Shown one piece after another: positions 2,013 to 17,941 of a stretch of DNA of 46,169 nucleotides. Each line of letters begins with the position of its first letter. Position 1 is the stretch's first letter. This DNA is from Candidatus Aenigmatarchaeota archaeon (GTDB taxonomy: Archaea; Aenigmatarchaeota; Aenigmatarchaeia; Aenigmatarchaeales; JACQIB01): assembly GCA_038999215.1 (NCBI GenBank), contig JAWABM010000003.1, forward strand, positions 1 through 46,169, in the 5' to 3' direction. A program made the translations under genes and the position numbers. Below the pieces are notes generated by a model, which saw only the letters and a program-made list of their open reading frames with translations, did not search any database and was not told the origin of the DNA.

Positions 2013-2285
2013 GGCAGGAAGCTAGCTGGGGGGATAGCCCTACCCTGTGAGCGCAAACGGGCTTCATGGCGCGGCGAAGCTCAGGGCGGTGCGGATTGTC
2101 CGCAAGGTCCTGTCGGCCGACTGAGAAGCGCCGTCCTGCAGAGCAGTAATCGTAGTGAACCGGGTCAGGTCCGGAAGGAAGCAGCCCTAAGTTGCGGTGC
2201 CTGCGTTTGCGGGGTCGCGGCGCGGAGAAGGCTTTCAGGGTCAGCTTTGCGGGTTTTCTGCATCAACCGAAGCGCGCTTCCTGCC
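2013..2285 (+). ncRNA. ffs: Signal recognition particle (7S) RNA
   Basis: Helix-8 signature GGGUCAGGUCCGGAAGGAAGCAGCCC; terminal helix GGCAGGAAGC/GCUUCCUGCC. Confidence 0.95.
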
Positions 2286-9013: not shown

Positions 9014-9082
9014 CAATACACCTTGAATTTGTGCCTCCGGAGGCAACCGGCATTGCCGGAATTGTATTTCCTATATGGATTG

Positions 9083-9098
9083 AACCTTTATAAAGGTT
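9083..9098 (-). promoter_or_regulatory. TATA-containing palindrome, promoter of the rps13 operon
   Basis: Perfect 16-bp palindrome AACCTTTATAAAGGTT ~70 nt upstream of rps13. Confidence 0.6.
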
Positions 9099-9146
9099 TC
9101 AGGGCTCGTCCGCTTTCGCAGCGGAGCTTTCTTTCCTAAAAAAACG

Positions 9147-9309
9147 TGGCGCCGGCGGCAGGATTTGAACCTGCGGGCCCCGAAGGGCACCAGATATCAT
9201 GACTTAAGGGACTCTACATTCTCCGCCGCTTTTCAGAGTCAAGCCATCCATTCATCTAACCCGGTTGGGTTCTCAAGTCTGGCGCACTGCCTGACTGTGC
9301 GACGCCGGC
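9147..9309 (-). tRNA. tRNA-Ser(UGA) with 76-nt intron at 37/38 (9196-9271), CCA encoded
   Basis: GCCGGCG acceptor, CCAGA-CU-UGA-G|A-UCUGG, long variable arm, G73. Confidence 0.92.
9196..9271 (-). ncRNA. Intron-encoded box C/D guide RNA (candidate)
   Basis: C-like AUGAAUG, D' CUGA, D AUGA preceded by CUUAAGUC complementary to the host anticodon arm; N+5 = U34. Confidence 0.7.
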
Positions 9310-9341
9310 TTAAAGATAACTAATTCCGCAGAATATTTAAA

Positions 9342-9503
9342 TCAGTATTTTTCCGCATCCTCAAGTAGCATGTCGGGAATTCCGCCTTCGAGCACCTTGA
9401 ACCTCAGCCTGCACTTTGGGCATAATATCTGCTCCTCTTCGAACTCCAGCGGGCCCTTGCATTTCGGGCAGGCCATCACTTCCTTCAGCGCTTCGTCAAT
9501 CAT
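9342..9503 (-). CDS. trm112: Trm112-family methyltransferase activator (53 aa)
   Basis: MIDEALKEVMACPKCKGPL...ICPKCRLRFKVLEGGIPDML; below the ORF-track cutoff. Confidence 0.9.
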   Translation of the reverse strand: MIDEALKEVMACPKCKGPLEFEEEQILCPKCRLRFKVLEGGIPDMLLEDAEKY

Positions 9504-17554: not shown

Positions 17555-17941
17555 CTAGTACACAAAGGCTATGAGCCTTCCTCCGAGCCCCTTCTTCTTG
17601 GCCTCTTCATGATTCATCACTCCCTGCGGCGTCGATACTATCAGGAACCCGAATCCTGCCGCCGGAAGGAACCTCATCTCGTACCTGTTGTACTCGTCCT
17701 TCTTCACGGCGAACCTCGGCCTCACCGCCCCGCAGCCGTTTATGTTCCCTATCAGCGACACCTTGAACTTGCCGCCCCTCCTGTCGTCTATGAACTCGAA
17801 GTTGCCTATGAAGTCGTTCGCCTGAAGTATGAGCAGCACGTCCTTCGCCATCTTTGACGCCGGGACCGTCGCTTCCTTCTTTCCCAGCCTGTCGTTGTTC
17901 TTGAGTGCCGACAGCACATCCGCAAGCACGTCGTGTATCAC
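17555..17941 (-). CDS. rps8: 30S ribosomal protein uS8 (GTG start)
   Basis: [37 protein letters not shown]; GGTGA RBS. Confidence 0.96.

Follow-up and report, generated by a model that had tools for sequence, protein, structure and literature searches.

What becomes of an RNA motif whose two halves lie at opposite ends of an intron? This question is raised by a 76-nt intron in a tRNA-Ser(UGA) gene of Candidatus Aenigmatarchaeota archaeon (assembly GCA_038999215.1, contig JAWABM010000003.1). The window, that is, the whole stretch of DNA that was analyzed, comprises the 46,169 nucleotides at positions 1 to 46,169 of this contig; it is contig C3 of a 571-kb assembly with 24 contigs and 88% completeness, here called G000. 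With a little more than even confidence, we read the intron as a class-conserved box C/D guide RNA whose kink-turn (K-turn) is formed from the two ends of the intron and would be restored by circularization; the K-turn, the circle, the ribonucleoprotein, and the methylation that it would carry out are predicted from sequence.

The host gene and its parts are on the minus strand, where intron position p corresponds to window coordinate 9272-p:

9150 to 9309, minus strand: tRNA-Ser(UGA) gene with intron (Rfam tRNA, 42.6 bits, and ARAGORN with introns)
9272 to 9309, minus strand: 5' exon, by sequence reading
9196 to 9271, minus strand: intron of 76 nt at the canonical 37/38 site and a guide RNA of box C/D type, conserved in order and class
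9150 to 9195, minus strand: 3' exon, by sequence reading
9147 to 9149, minus strand: encoded CCA, by sequence reading

The match to the Rfam tRNA model (gathering score of 29) has a 79-column insertion after the anticodon, and ARAGORN, when introns were allowed, called Ser(tga) i(39,76), which is an intron of 76 nt. With default settings, ARAGORN did not call the tRNA-Ser(UGA) gene. Since the intron-permitting setting also gave many doubtful calls on the loci and the genome, the sequences were judged by eye. The anticodon stem (9282 to 9278) is followed by the loop bases C32, U33, U34, G35, A36, and G37, then by the intron from 9271 to 9196, and then by A38 at 9195. A canonical archaeal tRNA intron lies at the 37/38 site in a bulge-helix-bulge motif, with two 3-nt bulges flanking a 4-bp helix. 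Here, three of the four pairs of the central helix are present (U33 faces U73), and the inner helix amounts to 2 bp; a complete central helix is found in 35 of 61 family introns. The cut can shift by 1 base because there is an A on both sides, and the sequence of a circle would be unchanged either way. The splice sites that had been assumed in an earlier note on this DNA are those indicated by the Rfam insertion and the ARAGORN call, and all the motif strings quoted there were found by reading the minus strand from 9271 to 9196. The RNAfold minimum-energy structure of the whole precursor was not tRNA-like and was set aside.

Within the intron, we recognized the following parts:

9258 to 9271, minus strand: 5' hairpin, nt 1 to 14, 5 bp and a 4-nt loop; predicted capped canonical stem of the C/D K-turn
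9257, minus strand: A15, predicted partner of U76 (9196) in the pair closing the stem across the junction
9249 to 9255, minus strand: C box AUGAAUG, nt 17 to 23; the bulge would be nt 16 to 18, with G19 and A20 as sheared-pair bases
9237 to 9248, minus strand: D' guide, nt 24 to 35, 12 nt, antisense to 16S helix 44; U31 (9241) is the N+5 base
9233 to 9236, minus strand: D' box CUGA, nt 36 to 39, which fits the consensus
9220 to 9232, minus strand: spacer, nt 40 to 52, with a conserved GGCGG at nt 45 to 49 (9227 to 9223)
9213 to 9219, minus strand: C' box AUGUAGA, nt 53 to 59, degenerate, with GU replacing the first GA
9201 to 9212, minus strand: D guide, nt 60 to 71, 12 nt; nt 64 to 71 can pair with tRNA-Ser positions 37 to 30, with A67 (9205) opposite U34
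9197 to 9200, minus strand: D box AUGA, nt 72 to 75; G74 and A75 would face A20 and G19, and the same bases belong to the splicing motif
9196, minus strand: U76, the last intron base, predicted to pair with A15 and to stack on the 5' hairpin once the ends meet

Archaeal C/D guide RNAs have the consensus RUGAUGA for the C box and CUGA for the D box; the two boxes pair through tandem sheared G-A pairs beside a terminal stem, the C box supplying a three-base bulge that ends in U and is followed by GA. The distance from C to D', like that from C' to D, is about 12 nt, and the base to be methylated is the one that pairs with the fifth guide base upstream of D or D' (N+5). Both spacings are 12 nt in this intron. 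The 5' hairpin is predicted by RNAfold to form with pairing probabilities of 0.79 to 0.99 for nt 1 with 14 and 0.996 to 0.997 for nt 5 with 10. Among the relatives, most of the 61 introns have NAUGA at a fixed offset before the guide (mainly ATGA, with two GTGA and two shifted by 1 base), and, as read from these sequences, CUGA or CCGA at the D' box covaries with the base after the C' box.

The intron is not peculiar to this genome. When the precursor was compared with 61 relatives by BLAST, its intron part had matches in 17 genomes. A 15-mer consisting of the guide and the D' box was found with at most one mismatch at 26 places in 25 of 42 genomes of the order, while the reversed-pattern control gave none; five of the 26 were judged unrelated on reading, so that the core is conserved in 21 of the 42. 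An exact 13-mer, GGCTTGACTCYGA, which also covers guide and D' box, was found in 127 of the 371 class genomes, against 12 matches in 11 genomes for the reversed control. We examined 91 places, including the copy in G003, and sorted them into hosts by eye: 62 are canonical tRNA-Ser(UGA) introns, 21 (G003 again included) are insertions in the 3' part of 16S rRNA genes, and 8 look like chance matches in coding sequence. Scanning of the whole genome collection with a 14-mer gave mostly bacterial chance matches among those listed. The core with guide and D' box is conserved in orthologous introns, and by its sequence the intron is a member of a box C/D methylation-guide family conserved across the class Aenigmatarchaeia.

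The five 15-mer matches that were set aside lie in coding sequence or at the 5' end of 23S rRNA (G023, G018, contig C2 of G041, contig C112 of G021, and G016). Those at the 5' end of 23S rRNA, G021 C112:6897-6911 and G016 C22:26078-26092, match 14 of the 15 bases of guide plus D' box; we judged them to be chance matches, and the count of off-target matches fits the expectation.

The D' guide can form 10 contiguous Watson-Crick pairs, the N+5 base included, with the 16S rRNA of its own genome. The target, C5:17830-17839, is on the 5' strand of helix 44 of the 16S gene at C5:16024-17971. A 10-bp run in 16S was reached by 29 of 5,000 shuffled D' guides, and the 10-mer GTCAAGCCAT occurs in the genome at two places only, the antisense strand of the intron and the 16S gene. 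The base opposite N+5, at C5:17833, we take to be the equivalent of E. coli A1408. This assignment agrees with the sequence context given by Dennis et al. (PMC4644070), who report a predicted methylation at this position for both S. acidocaldarius and N. equitans. The helix 44 site is kept in 12 of 12 order genomes that have both the guide and an assembled 16S 3' domain. In the 16S-hosted copies, the guide pairs over 8 to 11 bp with helix 44 of the same gene in 20 of 20 cases (those of the 21 examined that reach helix 44), at a distance of 97 to 182 nt from the insertion. The D' guide would thus direct 2'-O-methylation to the A1408 equivalent of 16S rRNA.

The conserved GGCGG of the spacer, present in the alignment of five introns and in many class members, is complementary to a 16S CCGCC directly 5' of the guide target (C5, about positions 17824 to 17828) and could add base pairing beside the guide duplex. 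It offers no covariation test, because the 16S bases are invariant.

Two other partners were considered for the D' guide. The earlier note had suggested pairing with the D-loop of the host tRNA. In G000, 8 pairs can indeed be drawn there (one G-U), but across the 61 introns the best runs with the 5' part of the own tRNA range from 3 to 9 pairs, and we rejected this target because the guide is nearly invariant while the D-loops vary. A stretch across an exon-intron boundary of pre-tRNA-Leu(CAA), at C14:13451-13461, is complementary at 10 of 11 bases; it was dropped because position N+2 is mismatched and N+5 would fall on A35 instead of the wobble base.

The 16S-hosted copies, in insertions presumed to be introns, are at L054, L118 to L120, L122, L125, L126, L128, L129, L131, L132, L134 to L136, L138 to L140, L145, L148, L182, and L183. 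By eye, most of them have a second guide antisense to the 3' end of 16S, as do the tRNA-hosted copies L116, L117, L123, L124, L127, L130, and L133. G003 has two differing 16S helix 44 sequences (L054 on contig C56 and L089 on contig C19), one with the guide target and the other with a G-to-A change, which suggests two rRNA copies or a mixed bin. Extra tRNA-Ser introns at noncanonical sites (anticodon stem and T arm), up to three per gene, were seen at L005, L007, L009, L010, L012, L016, L021, L033, and L230; the upstream intron of L230 has a stretch resembling the D guide and D box of the permuted form described below.

The D guide of the G000 intron could act on tRNA. Its nt 64 to 71 match tRNA-Ser positions 37 to 30 with seven Watson-Crick pairs and one G-U pair, placing U34 at N+5, and U34 of tRNA-Ser(UGA) is a plausible methylation target. 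The register on U34 is kept in seven of nine introns that carry the stretch, being shifted in G002 and G004. A role as guide is not proven by this, because the same stretch may serve the inner helix of the splicing motif. The trans target named in the earlier note, tRNA-Leu(UAA), is possible: 13 order genomes have a Leu(UAA) anticodon arm with the fully complementary 8-mer. In the 88%-complete assembly of G000, no type II tRNA with the anticodon UAA was found, the four Leu genes being UAG, CAG, GAG, and CAA.

The architecture of the intron is best understood from its relatives. We parsed 61 tRNA-Ser(UGA)-hosted introns with the conserved guide, which fall into 28 permuted, 28 ordinary or other, and 5 G000-type introns. 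Where the order is ordinary, the terminal stem is made by the two ends of the intron. In the permuted form (loci L153 to L179, L151, L055, L056, and L057), the boxes are circularly permuted relative to the splice sites: the 5' splice site is followed by a guide of 9 to 12 nt, an NNGA box, a hairpin, a three-base bulge, the GA of the C box, the 12-nt 16S guide, the D' box, a spacer, the C' box, a short tail, and the 3' splice site. At least three consecutive hairpin pairs abut both GAs in 26 of the 28 permuted introns, with a mean of 4.96 pairs compared with 1.74 in shuffled sequences, and the stems are very unlike one another in sequence. These relatives thus identify the hairpin in front of the C box as the K-turn's canonical stem, capped by its loop, and a D-type GA has to stand directly before it. 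In 27 of 28 introns, the permuted D guide pairs over 7 to 11 bp with a stretch that joins the final two or three bases of the intron to the 3' strand of the anticodon stem, always with U39 at N+5. Guide and exon covary: CCAGATAT in the guide goes with ATATCTGG at the junction, and an ATCCGG exon goes with a matching guide.

The anatomy that these relatives demand, with a GA before the hairpin, is found in G000-type introns only across the splice junction, as the earlier note had proposed for the intron of the window. G000-type introns are present in five genomes of four families (G000, G001, G012, G011, and G020), and a metagenome scan that gave 13 stretches added four further distinct sequences, L235, L239, L230 (identical to L237), and L236; three other stretches were identical to G012 or G020. 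In all nine sequences, the hairpin starts at intron base 1, there is no GA before the hairpin in the intron, and the 3' end is NNGA plus one base. When the hairpin stem is closed through the junction, it is gap free over 6, 5, 4, 4, and 3 bp in the five genomes, the pair of the last base with A included, and over 6, 5, 4, and 4 bp in the four metagenome sequences, while closing it through the 5' exon gives 0 bp in nine of nine. The combination of A15 and U76 is A-U in five of five aligned introns, and the hairpin loops differ, some being stable tetraloops. The distance from C' to D is 12, 12, 12, 13, and 12 nt in the five genomes and 12 nt in L235, and the register of the D guide is also present in L235. 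Because the only D-type GA of a G000-type intron sits one base before its 3' end, the K-turn needs the two ends to be brought together.

The other side of the presumed K-turn is consistent with this. In the alignment of the five genomic introns, two of the three pairs of the noncanonical stem change on both sides, from A-U to U-A and from G-C to A-U, and 86.7% of the cells are paired, compared with 34 to 49% when the partner column is slid. The number of two-sided changes was reached by 14 of 500 shuffles, which is a weak control with five sequences. The four bases before the terminal bulge are CATG only in G000 and G001 (2 of 61 introns); with this variant, one pair of the splicing helix is lost and the A21-U73 pair is gained. 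Folding with ViennaRNA gave a probability of 0.957 for A15-U76 when the intron was treated as a circle and 0.0 when it was linear, a comparison suggested in the earlier note. Taken together, a K-turn split between the intron ends is supported by the sequences, the formation of the sheared pairs themselves being a prediction. It would be a functional element that is discontinuous in the gene and continuous after end joining, a picture obtained in silico.

We propose the following course of events. In the precursor, G74 would pair with C32, and A75 would be in the 3' bulge of the bulge-helix-bulge motif. The splicing conformer and the K-turn would be mutually exclusive, because G74 and A75 are used by the splicing motif, and formation of the K-turn would require that motif to open first, most simply once the intron has been excised. 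The splicing endonuclease would cut, and RtcB would ligate U76 to A1. G74 and A75 could then form the sheared pairs with A20 and G19 of the C box, beside a noncanonical stem of A21-U73, U22-A72, and G23-C71, and the canonical stem would consist of U76-A15 stacked directly on the pairs from A1-U14 to C5-G10. The circle would be an ordinary C/D guide RNA with a terminal stem capped by a 4-nt loop, on which L7Ae, Nop5, and fibrillarin may assemble for methylation of 16S A1408 and tRNA-Ser U34, perhaps also U34 of tRNA-Leu(UAA). The genome encodes fibrillarin (229.8 bits) and Nop5 (166.4 bits) in genes side by side, an L7Ae-family protein (93.7 bits), RtcB (573.5 bits), and two adjacent splicing-endonuclease domains in separate open frames. 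With RtcB and the endonuclease encoded, circularization of the intron is plausible. The sequencing runs X1 to X3 bear on it neither way: the one RNA run of a linked study, X3, gave nothing on positions 9050 to 9400 of the window, and X1 gave only a 40-base piece of the 3' exon that is 90 to 95% alike, with no joints.

Several observations weigh against the reading of an intact guide restored by circularization. The boxes are imperfect: the C box fits RUGAUGA at bases 1 to 4 and differs at the last three, the C' box has GU in place of an expected GA (it is AUGAAGA, AUGAGGA, or AUGUGGA in relatives), and the D box is AUGA and not CUGA, with the GA kept. The nine stems share an AAC/GUU core, so that compensatory change within them is limited. 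The C'-to-D spacing is 11 nt in L239, 33 nt in L230, and 25 nt in L236, and these three also lack the register of the D guide. The noncanonical stem has one of three pairs in L239 and two of three in G011, G020, L230, and L236 (the counts for L239, L230, and L236 were taken by eye from the sequences). The fold model gives this stem a probability of 0.013 and prefers pairing between the guides; it cannot score G-A pairs, and the guides are complementary over 7 bp, which accounts for the low value. The complementary stretches, nt 25 to 31 and nt 67 to 73, dominate the protein-free minimum-energy fold, and they exist because the 16S target resembles the complement of the tRNA-Ser anticodon loop. 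Many family introns, whatever their architecture, end in GA plus one base, and since this GA belongs to the splicing motif, it proves nothing by itself. The exact abutment of hairpin and GA could have arisen incidentally, when a permuted ancestor like G006 lost the DNA between two of its GAU repeats. A K-turn, finally, does not strictly require a continuous strand.

From the last point comes the alternative that survives best, although we regard it as unlikely at about one chance in four: the K-turn is split and forms without ligation, either in a nicked linear intron or in a precursor arranged as a three-way, k-junction-like structure, circularization being incidental. In the precursor version, the anticodon stem would be the third arm and the structure would alternate with the splicing conformer. 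All the pairs can be drawn as nested in a linear molecule, and the ribonucleoprotein of the tRNA-Trp intron is reported to act in trans, with the intron either still in the precursor or already excised (PMC4090602). The D guide spans the 3' exon-intron boundary in 27 of 28 permuted relatives, and therefore action on, or within, the precursor would be expected there. In a linear G000 intron, however, the D strand would be held by the single pair U76-A15, the very pair whose predicted probability falls to nil without the circle. The precursor needs G74, A75, and nt 71 to 73 for the helix and bulge of splicing, and excised archaeal introns are reported to be circularized (PMC3326292).

Rather less probable, at perhaps one chance in eight, is that the 3' GA serves splicing only, the hairpin and C box being a decaying relic and the intron acting as a half guide through C'/D' and the 16S guide. 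The degenerate C, C', and D boxes, the wide occurrence of a terminal GA plus one base, the deviating D guides of L239, L230, and L236, and a geometry explicable by simple deletion from a permuted ancestor are all as this explanation would have them. A relic would not be expected, however, to keep the hairpin, A15, the bulge U, the GA, and their geometry in nine sequences of at least four families while the loops differ. The two-sided change in the noncanonical stem and the splicing-helix mismatch in G000 and G001 also speak against it, as does a 12-nt spacing in five of the nine sequences, with 11 or 13 nt in two more.

It is very unlikely that G35 and A36 of the anticodon act as the D box for the intron hairpin and C box in the precursor. 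The 5' exon does end with GA plus one base just before the hairpin, in a geometry like that of the intron 3' end, but the stem closed through the exon has no pairs in any of the nine sequences because G37 faces A15, and the bases after the C box vary while exon positions 32 to 34 are fixed, with none of three pairs in G012, G020, and L239. That the box-like motifs arose by chance in an intron without guide function is more unlikely still: Rfam over positions 9050 to 9400 gave only tRNA and no C/D family, with just three other, chance-level matches at E values up to 10, but the core in 127 class genomes against 12 control matches, U39 at N+5 with exon covariation in nearly all permuted relatives, and the complementarity of the D' guide to helix 44 in both kinds of host are hard to reconcile with chance.

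Restoration of the K-turn by circularization remains our preferred reading, and a wider proposal can be built on it, which we make tentatively and with less than even confidence. The circle may be the unit under selection, with tRNA or 16S splicing as the obligatory route to one ancient guide for A1408 and for U34 or U39. If only the circle matters, the splice junction would have been free to drift, and it is found at three places in the RNA: near the apex of the terminal stem, within the D guide in the 28 permuted relatives, and at the base of the K-turn in G000. The guide RNA would also have moved between tRNA-Ser introns and 16S insertions near its own target.

Other RNA features of the genome can be noted here. 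Five of the 15 intron-bearing pre-tRNAs of G000 (introns of about 40 nt) have a short GA-hairpin-NNU-GA in the 3' half of the intron, at C21:6009, C21:9138, C9:19304, C14:13418, and C14:2807, which resembles the contiguous K-turn hairpin of the family. The looser pattern GA-hairpin-NNN-GA was found in 12 of the 15, compared with a shuffle mean of 7.3 of 15 and a maximum of 12, which is not significant. The 9-mer ACATAAGGG occurs 27 times in the genome, against about 4 expected, and always in apparent coding sequence; its excess is probably codon bias (ATA and AGG) and not a repeat. Two further RNA genes of the window are as follows:

2015 to 2283, plus strand: archaeal signal recognition particle (SRP) RNA, 129.5 bits
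36375 to 36486, minus strand: second tRNA with an intron (about 39 nt), tRNA-Gln(UUG) by sequence reading

Intron-encoded, circularizing C/D guide RNAs are known already; the present family would be a variant of these in tRNA-Ser, with a split K-turn or a permuted form. We found no description of a guide RNA in a tRNA-Ser intron, of a permuted intron-borne guide, or of 16S-hosted copies in DPANN archaea in the open-access literature. The hosts of intron-borne guides named so far in the available parts of that literature are tRNA-Trp and the tRNA-Met of N. equitans, whose intron has a C/D-like RNA with a stable hairpin (PMC4090602 and PMC3491384), and tRNA-Ser(UGA) would be added to these few. 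One guide RNA would have two host types, tRNA introns or 16S rRNA insertions, and tRNA splicing would be linked to a predicted modification of the decoding center in genome-reduced DPANN archaea. Apart from the permuted guide of N. equitans, there was little prior reason to think that a circle is needed. The box order in the 28 permuted and 9 split sequences makes sense mainly for joined ends, and the question whether circles matter becomes directly testable.

One of the closest known systems is the tRNA-Trp intron of Haloferax volcanii, which is reported to guide positions 34 and 39 as a circle (PMC3326292 and PMC4090602); the former describes circularization of excised archaeal introns and a circular tRNA-Trp intron that is stable and active. 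The two have in common a C/D guide inside a tRNA intron at the canonical site, excised by the splicing endonuclease, and a host tRNA that is targeted, here predicted at position 34, or at 39 in 27 of 28 permuted relatives. They differ, as far as that system is described there, in that the host here is tRNA-Ser(UGA), one guide is aimed at 16S rRNA and not at the host tRNA, and the boxes depart further from consensus. In addition, the D box shares bases with the splicing motif and a hairpin encoded at the 5' end serves as terminal stem, so that the splice junction falls inside the K-turn.

The predicted helix 44 nucleotide is the same as that of the A1408 guides of S. acidocaldarius and N. equitans (PMC4644070), which are stand-alone, unlike the intron guide. 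Permuted RNA restored by splicing has its precedent in the SRP RNA of Thermoproteus, made whole by bulge-helix-bulge cleavage and ligation (PMC4731332 and PMC7994747). That case concerns another RNA class and a stand-alone permuted gene, and circularization was shown by experiment. Comparable in architecture is sRNA24 of Nanoarchaeum equitans, also a C/D guide of a DPANN archaeon; it has the right box order only as a circle and is reported to have been detected as a circle (PMC3491384). In that account sRNA24 is not intron-borne and its route to circularization is unknown. In the Aenigmatarchaeia, the break would fall within the K-turn in the G000 type and within the D guide in 28 relatives, with ligation carried out by the splicing machinery.

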